A stretch of 11,960 nt of DNA from a bacterium (GTDB taxonomy: Bacteria > Zhuqueibacterota > Zhuqueibacteria > Oceanimicrobiales > Oceanimicrobiaceae), in contig JBHHXN010000159.1 in assembly GCA_046757025.1 (NCBI GenBank), forward strand, positions 1 to 11,960, given 5' to 3'. Below are positions 1 through 11,960 of this stretch, in pieces. The notes under the pieces are model-generated. The model did no database searches. It was not told the DNA's origin and saw nothing but the letters and a program-made list of their open reading frames with translations. The position numbers and the translations under genes are program-made. How positions within the stretch are numbered: position 1 is the first letter of the stretch; every line of letters begins with the position of its first letter.

Positions 1-11
1 TGTCAAAGGAG

Positions 12-31
12 ATTCCTGCATCCGCAGGAAT
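12..31. repeat. dRS3/REP-like 20-bp palindrome (ATTCCTGC-ATCC-GCAGGAAT)
   Basis: Perfect 8-bp arms at 12-19 and 24-31 with a 4-nt loop, followed by GACA. Same length and layout as the Neisseria dRS3 consensus ATTCCC-N8-GGGAAT. It lies ~40 nt past the serpin stop codon. Confidence 0.6.
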
Positions 32-68
32 GACAACTCTTTGCTGAATAGTTACAAGAAAAATTAAT

Positions 69-1295
69 TTATTCTTTAAATTCCGGAGAAACGATTTTAC
101 CCATAAACAAAATCGTCTGCGTGTGGTTTTCGCGAATCACAAACAAATACGGTCGATCCACCCTCATGAATTTGATGTGTTGATCTCCGCCAGCGCTCTC
201 TTTAATTGCCACTATGGTAACCGCCGCCGCTTCGGTGCCTTCTTCGTTGACTTCCACAAAGGTCTTGTGTTTCACGTAGCTGATGAACAAGCCGCCTGGT
301 TTGTACATGCGGGTAAAATCTGCTCCGGGTGCAAAAGCCACGCCCATGCCCAGATTGATGAGCGCCTTATTTAAAGAATCCTCGTATTCGAGCTTAAACT
401 TGGGCATCTCCAGAGTCACCGAATCTTTTTCGAAACTCTGCAGCCACTGGCTCCATTGTGCTGGCTGCAACCCATCGATAATGGCGTCCAGGTTCTGGCC
501 GGGTTTGGGTAAAAAAATCGTCATGCTGAAAGCGCCGTCACCGTACGGCAAATCCACCGCCTGAAACGTCTCGTTCTCCAGGTAATCGAACTCGCCGGTC
601 TGCACCATCATCTGGCAGGTTTTTTGCGATCCGTCCGGCAGATTGAAAAATTCCTCCCGGGTCAATTCCTTGTCGAATTCATATGTCCAGGTGCCTTTAA
701 AGTAGATGGCGTTGATCAAAAACATCACATCGGCAGGACTGATGCTGTCGAGTATCTCCTCGATTTTGCCGCGGGTGTTTTCCTTCACCCAATCGTTGAT
801 GATGTTGACGGAACTGGGATCGCTGAAATCAAGGGCTTGCACCAGGGCATTAAAAAAGATTTTATTCACATCGATGAAATCCTGCTCAAATCCGAATCCC
901 TGGCGGTACCAGATGGAATTGGCGATTTGAAAAGCCACTCTGGGATCGAGCTGCACCAGCAACTGCATGAGGCTCTGGTAGGAGCGGTTGATATCGTCCG
1001 AACTCAGGCCGGCAAATTCCAGCGTCTGCTCCATGGCGGATTTGGTTTCGCCGGCGGCGCCGTTCAGAGTCATGCCCAGGACCATGGAAACGCTCAGCGG
1101 CGAAATGAAGACATTCTCATTTTCATTCTGTTCCACCAATTCCTTAAAAAGCTTAAAGCCAAATTTATTGTCCGCATCGACGATTTGCTTTTCAAGCCTG
1201 GTCAATTCACGCACGTCCGAAGCAACGGGATTTTTACCGCATTGGGCAAATACCGCGCACAGTACCATCACGGTGATCAATTTCATCCATTTCAT
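69..1295 (-). CDS. Serpin family protein (MEROPS I4), predicted lipoprotein; serpin B, 408 aa
   Basis: Serpin motifs NVFISPLSVS, FLINAIYFKGTW, MPKFKLE, hinge EVNEEGTEAAAVT and C-terminal VDRPYLFVIRE...ILFMGKI. N-terminus MKWMKLITVMVLCAVFAQ-C. SD GAGGAG at 1306-1311. Confidence 0.97.
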   Translation of the reverse strand: MKWMKLITVMVLCAVFAQCGKNPVASDVRELTRLEKQIVDADNKFGFKLFKELVEQNENENVFISPLSVSMVLGMTLNGAAGETKSAMEQTLEFAGLSSDDINRSYQSLMQLLVQLDPRVAFQIANSIWYRQGFGFEQDFIDVNKIFFNALVQALDFSDPSSVNIINDWVKENTRGKIEEILDSISPADVMFLINAIYFKGTWTYEFDKELTREEFFNLPDGSQKTCQMMVQTGEFDYLENETFQAVDLPYGDGAFSMTIFLPKPGQNLDAIIDGLQPAQWSQWLQSFEKDSVTLEMPKFKLEYEDSLNKALINLGMGVAFAPGADFTRMYKPGGLFISYVKHKTFVEVNEEGTEAAAVTIVAIKESAGGDQHIKFMRVDRPYLFVIRENHTQTILFMGKIVSPEFKE

Positions 1296-1330
1296 GATAT
1301 ATTTTCTCCTCTAAATTATTGCATTAATTG

Positions 1331-1367
1331 ATTATAGTGGAAGCACATTTTAAATAAACAGTGCTTC
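1331..1367 (-). promoter_or_regulatory. Putative sigma70-type promoter for serpin B with overlapping operator-like inverted repeat
   Basis: Perfect TATAAT on the minus strand at 1336-1331, 35 nt upstream of the ATG. The -35 is weak (TTTATT or GTTTAT). GAAGCAC-N14-GTGCTTC at 1340-1367 straddles the -35 position. Confidence 0.5.
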
Positions 1368-1377
1368 ATACGTCCCC

Positions 1378-1430
1378 AAAAAAAGCTCCCTACATCCTGC
1401 CCCGCAAGGCGGGGAAGGACAGACACGTAG
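1378..1430 (-). terminator. GC-rich hairpin followed by U7; putative (possibly leaky) intrinsic terminator after serpin A
   Basis: Minus strand reads CTACG..TCCT-T-CCCCGC-CTT-GCGGGG-C-AGGA-TGTAG, then GGAGC and TTTTTTT (A7 on + at 1378-1384). The U-tract is offset 5 nt from the stem, which is non-ideal. Confidence 0.45.
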
Positions 1431-1467
1431 TTTTGTGTATGTTCACACAGCATCCTTCGGGCGTCTG

Positions 1468-2700
1468 TTATTGCCATTTCGGTTCCACAATTTTGCCCAT
1501 GAACAGCAAGGTTTGGGCGTTGTTGGCCGCGATGACAAATAGAAACGGCCGGTCAACTCGCATGATCACGCCCGCCGGCGGCCCGATGGAAGTCACGCCG
1601 ATTTCAACCGAGGTGGCGGCAGCGGCTTCCGTGCCTTCTTCGTTCACTTCCACAAAAGTTTTGTGCTTGACTTTGCTGATAAAAAGATTTCCAGGCCCTT
1701 CATACATGCGGCCAAAGTCCGCCTGATACGGCTCAAACGCCACGCCCATGCCCATGGCTGTGAGCACTTTTTTCAAAGCAATTTCATATTCGAGTTTAAA
1801 TTTTGGCAGTTTAAGCGCCACTTCCGTAGTGGCAAAATGGTTTAGCCATTGGCGCCAATTTTCCGGGTTTAATTCGCCGATCAAAAAATCCAAATCGACT
1901 TGCGGTTTGGGCAGCAAAATCGTCATACTGAATTTCTCCTGCCCGTAAGTCAGATTCACTGCCTGAAACAGATCGTTTTCAAAATAAGCCAAATCCGTTG
2001 TCAACTGCATCATCTTGCAAGTTTTGGAAGAACCATCGGAAAGTGTGAACTGATCCTCGATGGTTCTATCTTTATCAAATTCAATAGTCCAGTCGCCTTT
2101 AAAATAGATGGCGTTGATCAAAAACATCACGATCTCCGGATCGATCCTTTCTACGATCTTTTTGATCTTGCCGTTGGTGTTGTCGCTCACCCAGGCGTTG
2201 ATGGTGTGGACGGATTGCGGATCGTTGAAATTTAACGCAGCCACCACCGCACGGAAATAGTCCTGGTTGACAGCGAGAAATTCCTGCTTGAAGGTAAACT
2301 CCTGGCGGTACCATATAGAATTGGCGATGGTGAAATCAACCTTTGAGTCCAGTCGCGTCAACAGATCGATGAGGCTGAGGTAGGCCTGGTTGATTTCTTC
2401 GGTGGTCATGCCGGCAAATTCCAGCGTCTGCTCCATAGCCGACTTGGTCTCGCCATCGGCACCGTTGAGCGTCATCCCCAGAGCCATGGAAACGCTCAGG
2501 GGCGAAATAAACAGATTTTTGTTTTCTTCGGTTTCGTTGATGGCTTCGAACAGTTTAAAACCAAAGCCGTTATCGGCTTCCACCAGATCTTTCTCCAACG
2601 CTGTCAATTCGCGATCCACCGACGACACGGGATTGTTGGAACAATGTGCAAAAATGAGGCTCAACGCCACCACGCAAATACTCAACTGTTTGATAATCAT
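1468..2700 (-). CDS. Serpin family protein (MEROPS I4), predicted lipoprotein; serpin A, 410 aa
   Basis: Motifs NLFISPLSVS, FLINAIYFKGDW, LPKFKLE, hinge EVNEEGTEAAAATS and VDRPFLFVI. Start moved from 2727 to the ATG at 2700 because SD AAGGAG (2707-2712) precedes it. Signal MIIKQLSICVVALSLIFAH-C. Confidence 0.97.
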   Translation of the reverse strand: MIIKQLSICVVALSLIFAHCSNNPVSSVDRELTALEKDLVEADNGFGFKLFEAINETEENKNLFISPLSVSMALGMTLNGADGETKSAMEQTLEFAGMTTEEINQAYLSLIDLLTRLDSKVDFTIANSIWYRQEFTFKQEFLAVNQDYFRAVVAALNFNDPQSVHTINAWVSDNTNGKIKKIVERIDPEIVMFLINAIYFKGDWTIEFDKDRTIEDQFTLSDGSSKTCKMMQLTTDLAYFENDLFQAVNLTYGQEKFSMTILLPKPQVDLDFLIGELNPENWRQWLNHFATTEVALKLPKFKLEYEIALKKVLTAMGMGVAFEPYQADFGRMYEGPGNLFISKVKHKTFVEVNEEGTEAAAATSVEIGVTSIGPPAGVIMRVDRPFLFVIAANNAQTLLFMGKIVEPKWQ

Positions 2701-2733
2701 CGTAAACTCCTTTTTGTTTAAAACCAACTATAA

Positions 2734-3282
2734 TTATTTTATGATTTGTCTATTCAATTTGATGATTTGAATTTGGTCCACCAGCATGGCGCTGGCCACT
2801 ATGCCGCCGGCCATGAGCCTGATTTTCAAACGCCGGTTTGGCGGACAAAACAGGCTCTGCGAGGATTCATACCGGCGCCATTGCGGCTGAGTGACCTGCA
2901 TCCCGATTGACTGGAAATCTTCCAGGCCGTCGATGGTGAGAGAAACTCCGCCGCCAATAGCCAGGTCTTTGCCCCAGAATTGCAAAACGTAGTAGCCGGC
3001 ATCGGGCTGCGCCGGAAGAACAAATTCAGCATGCGGAACCACACAGCCGCCGGAAACCCGCAGAGATTGTTTGCCGCCGCTTTGCGGTGCATCGTTTGCA
3101 ATATTCATGGAGCCGTGCCCGCGCCAGCCAACGGTGTCTGCCGGTGATTCAAAGGAATTGAAATAAATGCTGCCCTGGTCGGGCGCCATGATATTTTGAC
3201 CATCCGCACAACTTAAAAAGAACAGCCATCCGACCCCCAGAACACGCAGAAAAAAAAGCCGACCAACAAGTTTTGGTTTCAT
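2734..3282 (-). CDS. Hypothetical lipoprotein, possible galactose-binding-like (CBM4/9-like) beta-sandwich
   Basis: Lipobox FLSC. Pattern FNSFE...W...GKQSLRV...YYVLQFWGK...WRRY...LVDQIQI resembles CBM-like jelly rolls (inference). SD GGGAGG lies in the last codons of the upstream gene, with a 3-nt gap between genes. Confidence 0.8.
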   Translation of the reverse strand: MKPKLVGRLFFLRVLGVGWLFFLSCADGQNIMAPDQGSIYFNSFESPADTVGWRGHGSMNIANDAPQSGGKQSLRVSGGCVVPHAEFVLPAQPDAGYYVLQFWGKDLAIGGGVSLTIDGLEDFQSIGMQVTQPQWRRYESSQSLFCPPNRRLKIRLMAGGIVASAMLVDQIQIIKLNRQIIK

Positions 3283-3285
3283 TTT

Positions 3286-3933
3286 TCAATCCTCCCGTTT
3301 GACGGAAATGCTCAACGCCCGGTTTTGAAAATCGAATACGTTCAATTCGTAAGTAAATTGGCCTTTTCCCAGCGGCGTCTCGCCCACAAAATCGATGGGC
3401 TGAATGATGAATTCGTTCCCATCGATGAACAAGCGCACATAGGCGTAACGGTAGGCGATCTCAAATGGCTGGTACGCGGTTATTTCACTGTGTTTGATAT
3501 CTCCATAAAGAGTAAGTTGATTATAAGGATCGATCTGCACGCTGGTGAAATCATATTGACTGGCATTGTGAATCCGCAGGTTGGTTTCGAATATTTCGAT
3601 GGTCGTCAATTCAATGGGGATGAGTTCTTCCGACCAGGGCGGATCCTGTGGCAAGGGCTGGCGATGGCCGCTGAACAGCACCCGCAACCCGTGCTGCTGA
3701 TAAACCTGCGGTAAATTCGACGGCAGATACCGCACGCTGGAATCACTTTCCGGTTGGATGACAAACACCGCGGCATCCGAACTTAATTTAGCGATCGTTC
3801 CTATTTCCTGGTTGATGTCGTCGCGGTCTTCGGGAAATAGCGCACAACCGCAAAGCAAAGCCACTAAAACCAGCACCACACCGAACGACCGTTGACACCT
3901 TTTCTCAAACAAATTTAAAGAGACCTTTTTCAT
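3286..3933 (-). CDS. Hypothetical two-domain lipoprotein (OB-fold-like N-domain plus AYRYAY/QPIDFVGE beta-domain)
   Basis: Lipobox LCGC at residue 30. N-domain motif RYLPSNLP...GLRVLFSG. C-domain LRIHNAS.YDF...AYRYAYVRL.IDG...QPIDFVGETPL. Tightly packed with co-oriented neighbours. Confidence 0.8.
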   Translation of the reverse strand: MKKVSLNLFEKRCQRSFGVVLVLVALLCGCALFPEDRDDINQEIGTIAKLSSDAAVFVIQPESDSSVRYLPSNLPQVYQQHGLRVLFSGHRQPLPQDPPWSEELIPIELTTIEIFETNLRIHNASQYDFTSVQIDPYNQLTLYGDIKHSEITAYQPFEIAYRYAYVRLFIDGNEFIIQPIDFVGETPLGKGQFTYELNVFDFQNRALSISVKRED

Positions 3934-3956
3934 GGCTTTTCCCGTTCAGGTTTATT

Positions 3957-4373
3957 TCACAAATACAAAAACACGGTATCCTGCACCACCGCGTTCAATT
4001 TATCCCCACGGATGTTCAAACCGATAAAATATTTCCGGGCGTTCCCCAAATTCACATCGACGCTGAGGTTGGCGGTGTTTTGCTCATCGCCGTTTTCCCG
4101 TCTGAAAATACGCAAACGGTTCTGTCCGCGCGGCAGGTAAGTGACCATCATGGCTTCCGGACCTGTGAATGACGACACATTAGAAAAGAACGCGCTAAAA
4201 ATGTCTTTTTCGTTGATATCCAAATCAATAAATTGCCCCGCAAACCCGCCCTGAAAATCGAACTGCACGGCCACCAGATTGTCATTCGATGCGGGATCCT
4301 GAGAAAGCGGATTGGAATCGCTGTCGCAGCCTATCAGCGCAAATATCAAAAGGAATAATAGAAAGTGCTTCAT
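3957..4373 (-). CDS. Hypothetical lipoprotein, 138 aa, beta-rich
   Basis: Start moved from 4406 to the ATG at 4373 (SD AGGAG at 4379-4383). Signal MKHFLLFLLIFALIG-C followed by a D/S/N/P linker. Confidence 0.82.
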   Translation of the reverse strand: MKHFLLFLLIFALIGCDSDSNPLSQDPASNDNLVAVQFDFQGGFAGQFIDLDINEKDIFSAFFSNVSSFTGPEAMMVTYLPRGQNRLRIFRRENGDEQNTANLSVDVNLGNARKYFIGLNIRGDKLNAVVQDTVFLYL

Positions 4374-4409
4374 TTTTTCTCCTGTTTTAAACGAAACGAA
4401 ATTCATAAA

Positions 4410-4715
4410 TTAATCTCTGAGTGCACGGCCCACTACCTGCTTACTTGCCACATTGATGAACACGGTAATCGGACCCAGCAGCTCCTGGTCTGTGGTGTGA
4501 AAAATCACTGCTGCTACCTCGATACCCTGCCAGACCACAAATTGCACCTCGGCCTTTCGCCAATCGCCGATGACGGTGGCTTTTTCGATTTCGGTCAAAT
4601 CTCTCCAGGCAATTTCGCGGTAGGTCATTTTTTCATCGGAAACAGAATTGTCGTTATGGCAGCCAACCGCGATAAGCAGCACCAAGATTATTATGAAATT
4701 CGTCATATTATTCAT
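4410..4715 (-). CDS. Small hypothetical lipoprotein, 101 aa (PepSY-like topology suspected)
   Basis: Signal MNNMTNFIIILVLLIAVG-C. Mature part REIAW.DL...V.F.T...LLGPI.VFIN..SKQVVG...RD reads as a helix followed by a strand meander. Confidence 0.8.
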   Translation of the reverse strand: MNNMTNFIIILVLLIAVGCHNDNSVSDEKMTYREIAWRDLTEIEKATVIGDWRKAEVQFVVWQGIEVAAVIFHTTDQELLGPITVFINVASKQVVGRALRD

Positions 4716-5037
4716 AAGACCATCTCAAAATTCAGAAAATTACTGAACAGTGGTAAAAACCGAATGTTCCAATTTAAATTTTATCTTAGAATGACATCAA
4801 ATCCAAACTACCATTGTTTTTCAAAATTCTCATAAATTAACTCTCTTCAATACTTTGGCAATTTTTTCTATTTCACATTCTTAGTAAGCACCGGATGATT
4901 GATGCGTTAAATCAATGTATTTGGCCTGCTGTTAAAAAACACTTTTCAATAAACACAAATCTAAATATCAAACACATGTCCCTTTAATCCGAAGTAATTA
5001 CTTTTATGCTATGATTCTTGGTTTATAGTTCTTTGTT

Positions 5038-6087
5038 CTAATAACTTAATCTGGCAGTAAATGCAACCCCATTGCCAACAGCAAAGACGACACCGGATTC
5101 ATAGTACTGTACACGTCCGTATGGATGCTCGGAACCACCTATTGTGTGCTCGTCCCAAGTGTTCCCACCATCTTTCGTAACGAGCGCCTTCCCATCACTT
5201 GTTACAGCAACAATATGGCCTGTATCAATTGCGTCTATGTCATAAATCGCAGCGGAACGCGAGCCAGTGTCCAAATTGCGCCAGGTTTCCCCGCCATCGG
5301 TCGTATGGTAAATTGCACCAAACAGGCCACCGAGCCATCCCGTGGATTCGTCAACGAAGTCTATACAATAATAGCGCTCCCCTTCTCCATCAGTGTTTCC
5401 AGGCAAAGGAACATCTTCCCAAGTTTCACCAGCGTTTCTTGTTTTAACCAGCAAAGCCTTACTTGGTGTGCTAAATCCAGCAGCGTAGATTGTCGTAGGT
5501 GTTGGAGCACTGATGCTAAGGTAAACCCCGCCTTTACGGAACGAATCGTCAAGTACTTTCCATGTTTTGAGGCCGTCTTCGGAGTTCAACACAACTGCAC
5601 CACCTATTTCTGAATCCTGGGCGCCAGCCCAGATAATGGATTGGTCGTCCACTTCTATATCTCTAACGATTGGGCTGCCAGCAAGCTTGGTAACTTCAAT
5701 CCAGGAAGCTCCACCATCATCCGTCCGGTAGACATTCCGGCGCATAGCAATGCCGGTGAGATTATCAAAGAAATGAACGGAATTCAAACCACCAATTGCG
5801 GCTGTAATAAGTACGCGCCGCCAGTTCTTACCACCATCTTTTGTATGGTAGACAACGCTGCTCCAGCCTGGACAGGGATCGTTTTTACGGCAGCGGGTTT
5901 TTCCAGCAACCCAACCTTCCATTTTGTTGATAAAATAGACATCCGTATAAAGATCAGTTTCATTTGGCGTAATATTATACCAGATGTCTGTTTTTCGCCC
6001 TGAGTCAAAGAGAAAATCGGAACAACCAATGACTATCATCAGAAGAATAACCATTAACATCTGCTTGAACATAGTTTTGCTTTTCAT
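5038..6087 (-). CDS. YCF48-like / BNR (Asp-box) repeat beta-propeller lipoprotein
   Basis: Lipobox VIGC. Six Asp-box-like repeats: TKDGGKNW, TDDGGASW, SEDGLKTW, TRNAGETW, TTDGGETW, TKDGGNTW, with F.D/N...GW blades. Confidence 0.9.
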   Translation of the reverse strand: MKSKTMFKQMLMVILLMIVIGCSDFLFDSGRKTDIWYNITPNETDLYTDVYFINKMEGWVAGKTRCRKNDPCPGWSSVVYHTKDGGKNWRRVLITAAIGGLNSVHFFDNLTGIAMRRNVYRTDDGGASWIEVTKLAGSPIVRDIEVDDQSIIWAGAQDSEIGGAVVLNSEDGLKTWKVLDDSFRKGGVYLSISAPTPTTIYAAGFSTPSKALLVKTRNAGETWEDVPLPGNTDGEGERYYCIDFVDESTGWLGGLFGAIYHTTDGGETWRNLDTGSRSAAIYDIDAIDTGHIVAVTSDGKALVTKDGGNTWDEHTIGGSEHPYGRVQYYESGVVFAVGNGVAFTARLSY

Positions 6088-6128
6088 GATTTTTTTTCAA
6101 TAGTACAATTATTTCCACGGTTCCATTT

Positions 6129-6728
6129 TCACGGATAACTCACGCCGTTCACAAAAGCGCTCTGCAATTGCACGTTTGGAATCCAGCCGGAATACATCTC
6201 CAAAAGTCCCACGCCCGGGGCGTACGTTTCCCAATTCTCATCGTCGATGGCTTGCGGGATGTCGAAAAAGATTTCCACACAATCCTTAAACTGCCCGGCT
6301 GGTACGGTTTTGGTGAATCCCTTCTGATTCATGATGCCATCGTATTCGCTGTAACTTTTCCAGCGGTGGCCCTTTGCCCGGCCAAAATCGATGTAAAGCG
6401 CATCCCGGCCTTGATAGTACGTATAAATCTTTGCAATCCCGGCCAGGCGATAAAACGCACTGTCCACAAAAACACTGGCGCCCTGATCAAACCGGCGCTC
6501 AAACACAAAATACTCGCGCTGACCGAGCTTCATTTTCCCGACGATTTCATACTCCCACTGGAAAGCGGGATTGCTTGTCATGGCATACTGCCACTGGTTG
6601 CCGATTTGCATGGGGAAATATCCCAGCCCGGCTTGCTCTGGTGGCAGGATGCTGTTGTCTTGATCACATCCCAATAGAAATGAAATAAGCGGAATGATCA
6701 AAATGAAATTAGTTCTTTTTCCATTCAA
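6129..6728 (-). CDS. Hypothetical lipoprotein, ~199 aa (YFP..GN.W.Y / TVPAG.F / YAPGVG family; DUF3108-like)
   Basis: The ORF track start at 6887 is probably over-extended. SD AAGGAGG at 6735-6741 precedes an in-frame TTG at 6728, giving MNGKRTNFILIIPLISFLLG-C. Motifs YFPMQIGNQWQY, TVPAGQFKDC, YAPGVGLL. Confidence 0.8.
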   Translation of the reverse strand: MNGKRTNFILIIPLISFLLGCDQDNSILPPEQAGLGYFPMQIGNQWQYAMTSNPAFQWEYEIVGKMKLGQREYFVFERRFDQGASVFVDSAFYRLAGIAKIYTYYQGRDALYIDFGRAKGHRWKSYSEYDGIMNQKGFTKTVPAGQFKDCVEIFFDIPQAIDDENWETYAPGVGLLEMYSGWIPNVQLQSAFVNGVSYP

Positions 6729-6769
6729 TTTTATCCTCCTTAACGATTCATTTGAGTTATTGAGATAAA

Positions 6770-6884
6770 GCTGGCAGCAAAAGCTAACCATTTCAAATCT
6801 CCATTCCATGAGCCGGTAGTTAGATGCCTTTTTCATGATGCAGCCAATCCGTTTGGCGGTTGAAATGGTTAACCTCGCGCCAGC
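6770..6884 (-). other. Long branched intergenic stem-loop (candidate structured RNA element)
   Basis: Perfect 12-bp inverted repeat (6785-6796 / 6860-6871), extended on the minus strand to ~25 bp by G-U pairs and GCTGGC/GCCAGC (6770-6775 / 6879-6884). Encloses two small hairpins. Confidence 0.55.
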
Positions 6885-6895
6885 CAATTTTCAAA

Positions 6896-9800
6896 TTATT
6901 TCATCAGCGCCATTTTTATCACGGAGATCTGTTCACCCACCTGCAGTTTTGAAACATAAATTCCAGAAGCTACTGCTTGCCCCCGGGCGTCTTTGCCATC
7001 CCAGCGAATTTCGTGCGGCCCGGATCTTTGCACGCCATCAACCAAAGTACGAATCTCCTGACCCAAAAGATTATAGATTTTCAGGGAAACCGCAGACGCT
7101 TTGTCGAGATGATATTTGAGCGTGGTTTCAGGATTAAAAGGATTCGGGTAGTTCTGCGCTAAACCAAACTCCCGGGGTAAATTGCTATTGGTACTGCTTA
7201 CCTGTTTAAATTGTGGATCGGTAGAATTCTCTGAGTAATCATAAATATGTCCTACACTGGCGACGAATGTGCTGTCGGATTTCTGGTTGCTGAGCAATGT
7301 TTTGAAGTTCAAAGCAGCTCCAGAAGCAAAGCTATGACTGCTCAACCCCACACGCATGCGGGGCCGGCTAAAAGCCTCATTAGATGCGAATCTCAAAGCC
7401 TGAAAATTCTTTTCGAGCTGTTTATTCAGAGGACTTTGGATTTGAAACAAAAGCTCAAGCGCGCCCTGGCCGTTTGCCAGATTTACAACTTTCTCACCGG
7501 CAACAGACAAAACCACAATCAGACTGTCGGAATCGACAGGCAGGGTAAAGTCAGCAGAAGAAAGGGCCGTCCAGGCCTGATCAGCAGATAACACGGCGGT
7601 ATCCGGCGGTGCAACCGAAAAGCTTGCCTTTGAGTAACTGCCGTCCCGGTGTTTGATCAGGAAATTCTCCAAATGCACATTTATCCAGGCGCCGGAGTCT
7701 TTATCCTTAAGGCTTACAGCCCGCATGTATTTAATATTGCCGTCTTCTCTGGTAGCCGTGTTCTCAACAAAAACTCCTGACTTGCTAAATGTGGTTGAGC
7801 TAAGGTCGATTTCATAAGGCGCTGCACTGCCGGTCGTAGCCACATATTTCGCCTGGGTGCTGCCTATTGAAAATGAAGGGTACATGCCGGCAGCAGATGC
7901 AAAACTGCTCCAGTAACTACCATCGAAGGTGCGGGTAAAAACATAAGCTGAACCTCTCCGATAGGCAATGGCCGCTTTTGCCGCAGCCAGGCCGGTAATC
8001 GTGGGCCGGTCTTCAGTCTGATAATGGAATTCATGGTAAACGCTGGTGGCGCTCCAGGTTGACATCACTTTGTGAAGAATGACTCGTGCAGAATAAAAAG
8101 AGTCGTAAGCGTCCCAGGCCACGTGGGTGCGATTTAAACTGAGATCGCCGCTGAAAGCAATGGAAGGATGAGCGTGCTGGCTCAAATTTCCAGGCAGTCC
8201 CGAAGTCAGGTTGTGAATCTGGCTCCAGCCATTGTTGTAGTAGTGAGCGATGATCTCCGAAGAGTTGGGAATCTCCGCCGTGGCATAGGCAAGCGCAGTG
8301 GTATTAGCCCACCACGGGGTGAGGGCTGGCGCTACACTGGGGGAGTTTAAAGCTGTGCCAGTGATGGTTCTGGTGGTTGGCCAGCTTGAACCGTAATTGG
8401 CGCTGTGTTTGGATTTCAAATTGCCGCCTGAGCGGTAAACTATAGCCAGGTTATTGTTTGAGGGACTGGCGATGACCGGCAGGGGATCGGAGGTTCCGAC
8501 ATTGGTGGCAAGAACCTGGCGGTTGCCCGATGGCCAGGAAGCGCCGCCGTCCGTGCTTTTGTGAAAATAGAGGTCGTGGCTGCTGCCGGTGTTGCGCTGC
8601 CAGGTGACGAGACCATTGCCATTACGCTCGGCGATGGAGGGATACCCGTACTCCCCGAGGCCATCGCTTATCCGAACATCACTGCTCCAGCTCCCGCCCG
8701 ATGAATATTTGGCATAAAAAACCTGGTTGCCGGCCTGGTAAACCAGGTGATAATTGCCGTTGCCATCGCGGGCGAGGCGGCGGCCGCCATTGTGGGCGGT
8801 GGCAAGGGGCGAGTTGCTGGTGCGGTCGGGGAGATCATCTAGGGCTTTGAGAGCGGCGGCGTGGGCGTTGATGCGGCCGTAGCCCATGTACTGGTTCCAC
8901 CCATTTCCGTCATAGGAATATTGGCCGATTTTGTCTGCGGTACTCGTAAAAATATCCGTAACCTGCTGTACAGTTAGGCTGCTATTTACATATAGAATTA
9001 AACAAGCAAGGGCGGAAACCAGGGGAGCAGAAAAGGAAGTACCGTTTATTGCGAGGTAGCTATTAGTGCCACCTGTTGTTAAAACATTAACTCCAGGCGC
9101 TGACACATCTACAAAGGGTCCGTAATTCCAGTCATCATTAAATATCTCAACCTGGTTCTGGTCGAGCTTAGTCCCGGTGACAGCGATGACACCTGGGTAC
9201 TCAGCTGGAAATATCTCGAAAGGGATCCACATTGGATCGCAAAGATGCTCATAATCAGATTCCTTATAAAATTTTTCGTTTAAAGATCTATTCCCTGAAG
9301 CTGCAATACAGATTACGCCTTGTGCGATCGCGTCGGCAATGGCCGACTCAATTTCGGGATAATTATACGGCATAACTTTACCAATCCACTCAATAGGCTC
9401 AGGACATTCCAAAAATATATCTTCCAGTGTTGCCCGTGCTGTAGTCAGGAAGCTCATGTTCATAATGTCGACAGTGGCAGCCGCATCGTTTATCTTTTGC
9501 AACAAAACTGGGACATCCTCAGGTTCAAACGTACCACCTTGGAGTCCCTGATAAGTATACAGCGAAACCTCCCAGCCCAGGCTTGCAATGCCAGTATCAT
9601 TATTCGTGACTGCCGCTGCAACACCTGCTACGCTTGTACCATGTCCGGTGACACTATTGAGTTGATCTCCGCCAGAAATCGCTAAGTCCTCATGATTTTG
9701 TTCGACGCCGTTGTCTACAACACCAATCTTGATCTCGCCGTTTCCATGGGTAATATTCCAGGCCTCAAGTGCTTTTACAGCTTCAAGGTTCCATTGCTCC

Positions 9801-10189
9801 GAAAATCTAGGGTCATTAGGGGGGTCACTTAGTAAAACAATCGATATGGGTTGATGAGCGTATTCAACTTCAGACAATTGGCGAAACGCTTGCAAAGTTG
9901 AATCTAGTTGAACAGGTTGCGCAAACCGAAAGGTAAAGAGTTGGGAAAAATCGTGAACCCGTACCAGTTCGCCCGTCCGCTTGTGTGTGCGTGTAACGTC
10001 TCCCCATTGGGCGTTAGGGTCTTGTTTTATGATTTCGATAACACCGAATTTTTGTTCAAAACTGTTGATCATCGCCAGGACATTGGAAAAATTAGGCTGA
10101 ATATCGTTCTTGGCAGCATAACGAGCGCCACGGGGCAAATCTATCACGTACTCGTTAAATTTGACCACAATGGCATCGGTATAAAGCAT
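6896..10189 (-). CDS. S8 family (subtilisin-like) serine peptidase with propeptide, Asp-box/propeller region and T9SS type-A-like / FlgD-Ig C-terminal domain; main frame of a frameshifted gene that likely starts at 10329
   Basis: Asp in IGVVDNG (9713-9715), His in GHGTSVAG (9641-9643), oxyanion Asn in AASGN (9290-9292), Ser in GTSFSAP (9035-9037). Also PNDPRFSEQW, VDVSAPG, GYGRINA, Asp-boxes STDGGASW and SANYGSSW, and C-terminal QNYPNPFNP...WDGKD..G..VASGIY. No signal peptide in this frame. Confidence 0.95.
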   Translation of the reverse strand: MLYTDAIVVKFNEYVIDLPRGARYAAKNDIQPNFSNVLAMINSFEQKFGVIEIIKQDPNAQWGDVTRTHKRTGELVRVHDFSQLFTFRFAQPVQLDSTLQAFRQLSEVEYAHQPISIVLLSDPPNDPRFSEQWNLEAVKALEAWNITHGNGEIKIGVVDNGVEQNHEDLAISGGDQLNSVTGHGTSVAGVAAAVTNNDTGIASLGWEVSLYTYQGLQGGTFEPEDVPVLLQKINDAAATVDIMNMSFLTTARATLEDIFLECPEPIEWIGKVMPYNYPEIESAIADAIAQGVICIAASGNRSLNEKFYKESDYEHLCDPMWIPFEIFPAEYPGVIAVTGTKLDQNQVEIFNDDWNYGPFVDVSAPGVNVLTTGGTNSYLAINGTSFSAPLVSALACLILYVNSSLTVQQVTDIFTSTADKIGQYSYDGNGWNQYMGYGRINAHAAALKALDDLPDRTSNSPLATAHNGGRRLARDGNGNYHLVYQAGNQVFYAKYSSGGSWSSDVRISDGLGEYGYPSIAERNGNGLVTWQRNTGSSHDLYFHKSTDGGASWPSGNRQVLATNVGTSDPLPVIASPSNNNLAIVYRSGGNLKSKHSANYGSSWPTTRTITGTALNSPSVAPALTPWWANTTALAYATAEIPNSSEIIAHYYNNGWSQIHNLTSGLPGNLSQHAHPSIAFSGDLSLNRTHVAWDAYDSFYSARVILHKVMSTWSATSVYHEFHYQTEDRPTITGLAAAKAAIAYRRGSAYVFTRTFDGSYWSSFASAAGMYPSFSIGSTQAKYVATTGSAAPYEIDLSSTTFSKSGVFVENTATREDGNIKYMRAVSLKDKDSGAWINVHLENFLIKHRDGSYSKASFSVAPPDTAVLSADQAWTALSSADFTLPVDSDSLIVVLSVAGEKVVNLANGQGALELLFQIQSPLNKQLEKNFQALRFASNEAFSRPRMRVGLSSHSFASGAALNFKTLLSNQKSDSTFVASVGHIYDYSENSTDPQFKQVSSTNSNLPREFGLAQNYPNPFNPETTLKYHLDKASAVSLKIYNLLGQEIRTLVDGVQRSGPHEIRWDGKDARGQAVASGIYVSKLQVGEQISVIKMALMK

Positions 10190-10329
10190 GCCGTCCTTTT
10201 GATAAAAGTTTCCTTCGGTGTAACATCCGGGTCGGAAATGGATTGTATTTGCGAAAACAGGCTTTCATGGAGCACTAAACAAACGAAAAAGACATAGATT
10301 ATACCTATGAATTGGATTTTTGACTTCAT
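10144..10329 (-). CDS. N-terminal (signal peptide) segment of the S8 peptidase, out of frame with the main ORF
   Basis: Strong SD AAAGGAGGA (10337-10345) 7 nt before the ATG. Sec-type signal MKSKIQFIGIIYVFFVCLVLHESLFS|Q. It overlaps the S8 frame, which is open upstream to the TGA at 10265-10267. Confidence 0.75.
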   Translation of the reverse strand: MKSKIQFIGIIYVFFVCLVLHESLFSQIQSISDPDVTPKETFIKRTACFIPMPLWSNLTST

Positions 10330-10395
10330 AATACGATCCTCCTTTCTAAGTGTAATGTTAAAAAATGATTTCAGAATGATATTATCTTTTTGTCC

Positions 10396-11895
10396 TTATC
10401 TCACTAAAATCATCTTTTTTATCTCTGTCCGTCCAGCTATGTTTAATTTGTAAAGATAAATTCCTGATGATACATCCTTCCCTCGGTCATCTTTGCCGTC
10501 CCACACCGCGTCATGGCTCCCGGGCATCACCTCCTCGTTCACTAATGTTATAATTTCTTCTCCCAGGATATTATATACCGCGAGCTGTACTTGCGCTTGT
10601 TGTGCAACCTCAAATCTTATTGTTGTGGCCGGATTAAATGGATTGGGATAATTCTGCAATAATCGAAATGATACAGGAGCCTGCTCCGGCTGTTGTTCCA
10701 CGCCAACAGCCGGGTTGTCAAAATCGAGAATGTTTGCCCATAAAATGAAATTGATGGAATTAGCTGCTTTTAACGTATTCCATACCGTATATATCTTACC
10801 GTCTTTAAGTGCAACTGTGGGGCGAAGATGCCTTAGAGTATCCACCGTTGCGCTTACTTGAAAATTATTCCCGATCCGACTACCGTCGTCGGCAAAGCGC
10901 TGTGCAACAATATTTGAACCCTGGCTATTTTTTCTCTCCCATACGACCACCAAACATCCACTACCATCTATTGAAATTGCGACCTCAGTAGTAGGGACTA
11001 GAAGGTCTTCATTGATTTGCTTGCATTCTCCCAATGGAATTCCTTCCGCATTGAAATGTCGCATATAGATGCTCACACCGGTGACAGACCTCCCCGAACT
11101 CCAAACAGCTATGAAATCACCGTTACCATTCATCACAACATCGGTATTGCGAACAAAAGGCGTATCTGGCTCTACGCTGATCAGGAATGTTGAGTCTTTA
11201 GGAACACCATTTTTTGAAAACAAACGACCAAACAATTCATTGTGACTATCTGAAAACGCTTCTCCCCAAACCACCACAAATTGGTCACTCTCAGCATGTG
11301 TGGCAATATGAGGCGAAAACTGATCGTTTTCTCTGGCTCTGTCGTCAGATAAAAGTTGATTTGGACCGATGAATTCTAAACAGGTCGAAGTGCGCTGTGC
11401 ATAAACTCCAGGTGAAAAAGGCCTTTCAAATCCCTCCCCCGCCCACAAGACAACAAAAGTGGTGTCGTCCATGAAGGCAACGTCCGGTTCAAAACGCAAG
11501 GCGTCGGAGTAGTCATCATTGAATATAAGCCGACTGGATATAGAATCCGCCTCCGGATTTAATAACCGACCAAAGATCAAATCATTGAAAGTTGCAGGTA
11601 TTGCTTGCCAGGCAACAACCACAAAGTCAGAGCGGACATCTAATACCGTATCGTCTCCAGAATCCTCGTCTATCAATCTGGGCGCTTTTATAGGCTCCAA
11701 AAGCGAATCATACAGACCGTAGTAAGTGCCACTACTATTCCACCAGACAGCGTGGAGCCGCCCCTGCTCGTCAACTACGATGTCAGGATCATTGCCTGCT
11801 TCAACTAGCACAAAATCTGAGCGAATTTGTGCCAGTACTGTATTAAAGGAACATACCCAAATCACAGTGATAAGACAAATGGTTTTGACTTTCAT
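10396..11895 (-). CDS. Secreted repeat (probable beta-propeller) protein with T9SS type-A-like / FlgD-Ig C-terminal domain, 499 aa
   Basis: Signal peptide ending VLA|Q. About 7 repeats of P.(V/I)A....F(V/I)VVW.....I..R.F...G. C-terminal QNYPNPFNPATTIRF...YNILGEEI.TLV...WDGKDDRGKDVSSGIYLYKL...KKMILVR. SD GGAG at 11902-11905. Confidence 0.92.
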   Translation of the reverse strand: MKVKTICLITVIWVCSFNTVLAQIRSDFVLVEAGNDPDIVVDEQGRLHAVWWNSSGTYYGLYDSLLEPIKAPRLIDEDSGDDTVLDVRSDFVVVAWQAIPATFNDLIFGRLLNPEADSISSRLIFNDDYSDALRFEPDVAFMDDTTFVVLWAGEGFERPFSPGVYAQRTSTCLEFIGPNQLLSDDRARENDQFSPHIATHAESDQFVVVWGEAFSDSHNELFGRLFSKNGVPKDSTFLISVEPDTPFVRNTDVVMNGNGDFIAVWSSGRSVTGVSIYMRHFNAEGIPLGECKQINEDLLVPTTEVAISIDGSGCLVVVWERKNSQGSNIVAQRFADDGSRIGNNFQVSATVDTLRHLRPTVALKDGKIYTVWNTLKAANSINFILWANILDFDNPAVGVEQQPEQAPVSFRLLQNYPNPFNPATTIRFEVAQQAQVQLAVYNILGEEIITLVNEEVMPGSHDAVWDGKDDRGKDVSSGIYLYKLNIAGRTEIKKMILVR

Positions 11896-11960
11896 TTATT
11901 TCTCCAATCTATTTTTATCTGAGTAACGTCATCTTCTGCACCCGGCTGGCCCGGCCAACC

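Follow-up and report, generated by a model that had tools for sequence, protein, structure and literature searches.

Does a subtilase (peptidase family S8) gene that is followed on the same strand by eight lipoprotein genes, the last two encoding serpins, stand beside its own inhibitors, or do the lipoproteins belong to a larger system? This question is raised by contig JBHHXN010000159.1 (here C159; GenBank assembly GCA_046757025.1) from a vent bacterium of the family Oceanimicrobiaceae (Zhuqueibacterota). The entire contig, 11,960 nucleotides of a genome of 5.96 Mb in 374 contigs, is referred to as the window. The reading that we prefer, with a probability of roughly 0.55, is that the eight lipoprotein genes make up the tail of a long, variable operon that would begin at a sigma54 promoter on another contig, C134, and would coat the cell surface with protease inhibitors of several classes.

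Ten genes, all on the minus strand and separated by 3–322 bases, occupy positions 69–11895: a 499-amino-acid protein with a C-terminal sorting domain (CTD), the S8 protein with a CTD, six lipoproteins (lp1 to lp6), and the two serpins, in this order. A first-pass annotation had described this co-oriented run with two NYPNPFNP C-terminal domains, eight successive lipoprotein-type Cys starts and two terminal serpins; open reading frames (ORFs) together with Pfam searches that assign the two domains to FlgD_ig/Por, a custom lipobox rule (hydrophobic stretch plus Cys, not SignalP), and the Pfam Serpin profile, respectively, bear it out. The Cys contexts of the eight genes are FAQC, FAHC, FLSC, LCGC, LIGC, AVGC, VIGC, and LLGC. 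The rule flagged 624 of the 4507 ORFs in the genome; the longest run outside the window is four, and about 0.0006 runs of eight are expected. An integron cassette array was rejected because neither attC-like repeats nor any intergenic repeat family was found between the window genes.

The serpin genes of relatives belong to co-oriented arrays, varying in content and order, whose other members encode small lipoproteins and CTD proteins. Arrays of this type occur in the window's family and in genomes labelled Ignavibacteria and Caldithrix. A serpin match was present in 46 of 60 relatives, 39 of which have an array-family neighbor at the serpin locus, the array families having been defined partly from the same loci that were counted. 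From 41 genomes, we compiled 51 array segments with 268 proteins, 172 of them with a lipobox. Recurrent members are a lipoprotein combining an Emfourin-like domain with BsuPI, a CTD protein with CarboxypepD repeats, DUF6174, DUF2330, DUF3160, VIT-vWA, and TIMP-like proteins; the window's S8 is the only peptidase that the scan of array proteins revealed. Five of the six window lipoproteins have relatives in other arrays, and the window block is likely the tail of one. The TIMP-like gene has six of its nine matches on array or serpin contigs, and a TIMP-like domain with a Cys-Thr-Cys start is also found fused to an lp1-like domain and a CTD (L047:18150-19367 and L041:5497-6846). In about 10 arrays, serpins follow a member of a family of 140-amino-acid lipoproteins (L031:17926-18351 and relatives) in which the motif SRCP..CxWxG is conserved; this family, which matches nothing in Pfam or PDB, is a candidate inhibitor family. 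The arrays often end at a DtxR-FeoA iron uptake operon (L045, L065, L156, and L160).

The S8 gene does not travel with these arrays. The first-pass annotation had proposed that the protease is a surface effector and the downstream lipoproteins its cognate inhibitors, by analogy with the KLIKK proteases and potempins of Tannerella forsythia. The S8 is indeed adjacent and co-oriented, and miropin-type serpins inhibit subtilisin, according to a preprint (bioRxiv 10.1101/2025.09.05.674453). However, a co-oriented S8 was found at the examined serpin loci of none of the 46 serpin-positive relatives (at least the main locus in each, 2–20 kb and often limited by contig ends, with several secondary serpin contigs left out); the sole S8 at such loci lies on the opposite strand, about 10 kb away (G032). 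Conversely, the S8 at E ≤ 1e-40 gave 14 matches in 8 of the 60 relatives, and none of the 13 loci examined includes a serpin, two of them stopping at a contig edge right after the S8. Eight of these 13 loci hold the catalytic domain, in each case with a CTD gene directly upstream, which is of the BNR type in seven and an orthologue of the 499-amino-acid protein (43% identity) in G003. The nearest approach to the proposed linkage is in G010, where the second gene downstream of the S8 orthologue encodes a CTD protein with a weak lp1-like domain. Only one of the 51 array segments, the window's own, contains an S8, and the lipoprotein families occur without it. In G012, lp1 (56% identical) comes immediately after a CarboxypepD-CTD gene and is itself followed by the lp5 C-terminal domain, with no S8; because of this order, the window's module of a BNR-CTD gene, the 499-amino-acid CTD protein (10396..11895, minus strand; FlgD_ig, TIGR04183) and the S8 is likely a later insert, not the cognate protease of the array.

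The state of the gene also speaks against the proposal. The S8 body (6896..10189, minus strand; 1097 amino acids; PF00082, 107 bits) retains the triad motifs DNG, HGT, and GTS and a CTD by the TIGR04183 criterion, but its signal peptide (10144..10329, minus strand) is out of frame with it owing to a break near 10221, so that the description as a secreted subtilase is not confirmed for the window. The frameshift is shared by contigs of runs X1–X3, which agree with the window there and may be its source. In run X4, which stems from a different sample in the same study, an extra base follows 10221; by frame arithmetic, it joins the two frames and leaves the S8 of that strain intact. A paralogue on contig C92 is broken by an internal stop and has no lipoprotein run. 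Genes of this S8-CTD type are often split or stop-bearing in several genomes (L051, L053, L060, L061, L069, and G000:C309), which suggests frequent gain and decay. The notion of an S8 with its own immunity array, largely refuted by synteny and further undermined by the frameshift, was accordingly set aside, and we consider it very improbable. The first-pass annotation had itself named a lack of S8 synteny with the lipoprotein/serpin block in relatives as a ground for refutation, and for the protease link this is what was observed. A conserved protease-serpin pair of just this kind does occur in another lineage: 14 of 22 cyanobacterial loci (L097, L104, L105, L115, L119, L121, L123, L124, L125, L129, L130, L133, L138, and L146) have a lipoprotein serpin preceded by an S8 on the same strand, in 13 of them within 255–1075 bases, the local profile revealing no such pair at 58 other loci. 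As for export, the genome encodes SprA and 17 PorV-family proteins above cut-off (on C139, C11, and other contigs); GldN was not matched, in a search that also matched no control. The export system for the 162 CTD proteins of this genome may be a reduced type IX system.

The genes at the head of the arrays encode a HAMP sensor kinase, a sigma54 activator, a 330-amino-acid secreted protein of coiled-coil appearance (judged by eye), and a 357-amino-acid protein resembling an outer-membrane barrel; at the Ignavibacteria- and Caldithrix-labelled loci, the array lies upstream of the kinase instead. The first array gene is preceded by a site of the TGGCAC-N5-TTGC type (-24/-12) and two TCA-N6-TGA palindromes about 20 bases apart, a pair of enhancer-like sites located about 85–220 bases upstream. 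A promoter model was built from seven loci, and each held-out locus was compared with 20 shuffles. Seventeen of 21 held-out loci passed, with the site ahead of the Emfourin-like+BsuPI gene; the misses were G055, G032, G049, and G001, the last of which is cut by a contig edge. In the window's genome, the site at C134:6658, which belongs to the training set, scores 56.9, and the other 5617 candidates score at most 23.1. The same motif, with scores of 48–57, precedes serpin arrays in distant genomes (L100, L144, L086, and L169). The first gene behind it usually encodes either a serpin or the Emfourin-like+BsuPI fusion, which 19 of the 20 genomes from the family and 31 of the 60 relatives encode; scans of named genomes yielded no such locus. 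On C134, the BsuPI domain of this lipoprotein (PF12690) scores 46.3 bits vs a cut-off of 22.9, and the domain exceeded the cut-off in all five genomes tested.

The activator consists of a receiver, an AAA+ domain with the GAFTGA motif (found in five of seven activators checked, including that of G000), and a helix-turn-helix domain, and the genome encodes rpoN. Activators of sigma54 work from enhancer sites; given this general behavior and the proximity of the genes, the activator would be expected to bind the palindromes. Neither a sigma54 site nor an enhancer pair was found inside the window, and sigma70-type sites occur there at the chance level (17 vs 16.0). A second sigma54-like site, with a weaker -12 element and no enhancer pair, precedes the coiled-coil gene at 11 of 12 loci (L068:8851-8911 and orthologous gaps). 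Kinase and activator are adjacent in relatives where both were seen together; in this genome, they are separated by a second insert (L068:10496-14307), which encodes a CTD protein together with an M6-like HExxH metallopeptidase that also has a CTD.

The head can tentatively be placed next to the window, as follows. The kinase gene is on contig C288, which has a 55-base overlap with C134. On the latter are the activator, the other two head genes, the promoter, the Emfourin-like+BsuPI gene, a CarboxypepD gene, and, cut at its left end, a BNR-CTD gene, the last codons of which are likely those at 11896..11960 of the window (minus strand; 91% identity over 45 nucleotides to the end of the C92 paralogue). 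By comparison with the C92 paralogue, the gap should measure 204 bases, and contigs of runs X1 and X3 reach 234 bases past C134, which fits the join as 204 bases plus a 30-base overlap, its size inferred from 31-letter words. Among 16 contig ends that look CTD-like, only that of C134 runs off in this way. The array head, on C134, thus probably lies 204 bases from the window. At its other end, the window stops in a dispersed palindromic repeat (1..68; 91% identity over 68 nucleotides to C90), with additional copies on C5 and C203.

Inhibitory serpins share a hinge consensus with small residues at P12-P9. The window serpins, 61% identical to each other, are intact and match Pfam Serpin (MEROPS I4) over its full length (397.5 and 389.3 bits, profile positions 2–370), and their hinges are of the inhibitory type: EEGTEAAAVT in type A (69..1295, minus strand) and EEGTEAAAAT in type B (1468..2700, minus strand). 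The predicted P1-P1' of type B is Thr-Ser; in type A, P3-P2 is variable, with Lys-Glu in the window copy. They are two old paralogue types shared across the family (support 93 and 94, from a quick-method tree only); one array encodes four serpins (G012). The solved structures closest to type A include miropin, the lipoprotein serpin of T. forsythia, whose chains are matched at E 1e-77 or better. Type B resembles miropin in its predicted P1 Thr (P2-P1 of miropin is Lys368-Thr, as stated in bioRxiv 10.1101/2025.09.05.674453). Unlike miropin, the window serpins are two paralogue types in tandem within a cassette array that appears to be regulated.

The six preceding lipoproteins had been called uncharacterised, which holds for part of them only. 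The functions ascribed here to the Emfourin, TIMP, and PepSY domains are background, partly taken from Pfam names. lp1 (6129..6728, minus strand; 199 amino acids) is an array family that follows the CarboxypepD-CTD gene in relatives; it has 15 matches in 12 of the 60, the 10 best inside arrays and the weaker ones behind CarboxypepD-like genes (two) or elsewhere (three). lp2 (5038..6087, minus strand; 349 amino acids) is a BNR/Ycf48-like propeller (PF14870, 61 bits), and a BNR lipoprotein is present in the G013 array too. lp3 (4410..4715, minus strand; 101 amino acids) belongs to a family without a Pfam name that has 380 representatives, homologues in three other arrays, and one fusion of lp1 with lp3; a word-based search recovered only lp3 itself. 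Its fold is weakly PepSY-like: the TM scores to PepSY clusters, 0.47–0.60, are below the bar for naming, and PepSY (PF03413) is not among the 25 families listed of 26 (112 members). For lp4 (3957..4373, minus strand; 138 amino acids), a word-based search with 18 candidates found no relative other than itself. lp6 (2734..3282, minus strand) is a CBM4/9-like beta-sandwich (TM 0.70–0.77), and a serpin adjoins both of its matches in relatives.

lp5 (3286..3933, minus strand) is a fusion of two array domains found in seven of the 60 relatives, in five within arrays, in one beside an array family, and in one elsewhere. When its N-terminal domain profile was compared with 177,635 PDB sequences, potempin A (PotA) ranked best, with weak E-values of 0.038–0.086 on mature chains and 0.0043 when the signal region was included; PotA was matched by none of four other family profiles. 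An invariant Asp of this domain aligns to D64 of PotA, a zinc ligand according to PMC9890683. The likeness is a lead that points weakly to metallopeptidases. Structure predictions for lp5 were unusable (pLDDT 31.9 from the single sequence and 45.6 with a four-row alignment). The N-terminal domain was found only at one metagenome locus and in 2 of 120 genomes of the phylum; in a comparison of the C-terminal domain with BsuPI, only the signal region matched. At E ≤ 1, PDB contained no useful match for lp1, lp3, the lp5 C-terminal domain, the 140-amino-acid family, or the Emfourin-like+BsuPI protein. The earlier idea of stacked, unrelated membrane-anchored inhibitors is thus supported in a different form: arrays carry BsuPI, Emfourin-like, and TIMP-like proteins, and lp5 and lp3 are weakly inhibitor-like, but lp2 and lp6 have no inhibitor-like fold.

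On the reading of the window as the tail of the C134 operon, the sensor kinase would sense a surface signal, the activator would bind the enhancer and open the sigma54 promoter, and one transcript would reach the serpins about 18 kb away. The products would be surface inhibitors of serine and metallopeptidases, the latter possibly inhibited by lp5 and lp3, along with binding proteins. The signal could be proteolytic attack itself, perhaps read through cleavage of the secreted coiled-coil protein. Generalized to the FCB group, this would be a protease alarm in which a coiled-coil bait and a barrel protein signal through the kinase and the sigma54 activator to a shuffled armoury of surface inhibitors, an extension that we put forward tentatively.

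Several observations weigh against the tail reading. The segments were chosen by a serpin or a BsuPI head gene, which inflates the counts of inhibitors; an inhibitor fold is absent from many cassettes (BNR, CBM-like, DUF6174, DUF2330, DUF3160, and CarboxypepD repeats), and 7 of the 46 serpin loci have no array-family neighbor. In six family genomes (G002, G003, G004, G016, G018, and G019), the head is present and a serpin match absent. The Emfourin match (PF20242) of the C134 head lipoprotein, 25.5 bits, is below the cut-off of 27, although orthologues exceed it (35.4 in G046 and 30.2 in G001). lp5 lacks the S1' Tyr loop of PotA, whose three residues before the Asp, Asn-Ser-Tyr including Y63, are missing. 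The standing of BsuPI as a true inhibitor is disputed (PMC3901451). Furthermore, no promoter lies within the window itself, and transcription could be interrupted at gaps of 167–322 bases and at a 468-base gap on C134 that is rich in repeats. Finally, run X4 has no match to C134:1-1500, and one X4 contig extends 1478 bases past the window end, so either X4 represents a strain with different sequence at this place or the join is mistaken.

The last points bear on a further alternative, in which the window is a detached array piece outside sigma54 control and its surface genes have piled up neutrally at a site prone to recombination. It would account for the X4 disagreement, for the fact that no read or contig was seen to span C134 and the window, and for the array families that occur singly elsewhere in the genome (on C71, C36, C67, and C234). 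Nevertheless, the gap length fits to the base, the gene order is that of G012 and G010, and the serpins are intact with conserved hinges, so we regard a detached piece as unlikely. In the X4 strain, the DNA ahead of the window appears to be different (window 11021-11960); cassette turnover within one species is a possible explanation.

The main rival grants the regulation and disputes the purpose. Under it, the arrays would form a sigma54 regulon for envelope remodelling or feeding on protein, in which most cassettes bind or process substrates and a minority of inhibitors guards the surface against the cell's own secreted proteases. The genome's 16 S8 matches and 162 ORFs with an xYPNPFN-type CTD motif would suit such a lifestyle, as would lp6 and lp2, the recurrence of DUF3160, DUF2330, VIT-vWA, and CarboxypepD-repeat genes, and the two protease modules, S8 and M6-like, that landed at the locus in this genome. 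The identity of the promoter's usual first gene, serpin or Emfourin-like+BsuPI fusion, argues against it, as does the lack of array peptidases besides the window's S8. We hold this broader regulon to be a somewhat doubtful explanation.

We therefore read the system as an inducible multi-family anti-protease surface regulon, comparable to the serpin operon of Bifidobacterium breve. There, as described in PMC8012564, a serpin gene beside a two-component system is under protease-inducible control, with protection from outside proteases as the proposed role. Unlike in B. breve, the regulator here is a sigma54 enhancer-binding protein accompanied by coiled-coil and barrel genes. Its putative target, of up to about 20 genes, is a variable array in which several inhibitor-like families occur and which protease would be predicted to induce. 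With the T. forsythia KLIKK/potempin system the locus shares small outer-membrane lipoproteins near CTD-secreted peptidases; according to PMC9890683, each potempin gene lies directly upstream of one peptidase gene, whereas here a CTD gene precedes the S8, the lipoproteins follow it, and the linkage of peptidase and inhibitor is not conserved. The first array gene matches the domains of both Bacillus subtilis Ipi (BsuPI) and Emfourin; here a single lipoprotein combines the two, a fusion that the literature searched did not contain. Nor did that literature, which left most subscription papers outside its coverage, include a relevant description of a serpin/lipoprotein array under sigma54.

Bacterial protease inhibitors are mostly known singly, and their regulation is known in few cases. 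The locus illustrates that a protease may have been inserted next to inhibitors in a single genome. With a variable array marked by a conserved promoter, candidate inhibitor families can be listed by position, and what they protect from becomes directly testable; the organism need not be cultured, as a heterologous reporter would allow tests of the promoter, the activator, and the first gene. If the protease alarm is real, the array would be a catalogue of new inhibitor families, in which lp3 would stand as a PepSY-like inhibitor and lp5 would extend potempin-A relatives beyond Tannerella for the first time.

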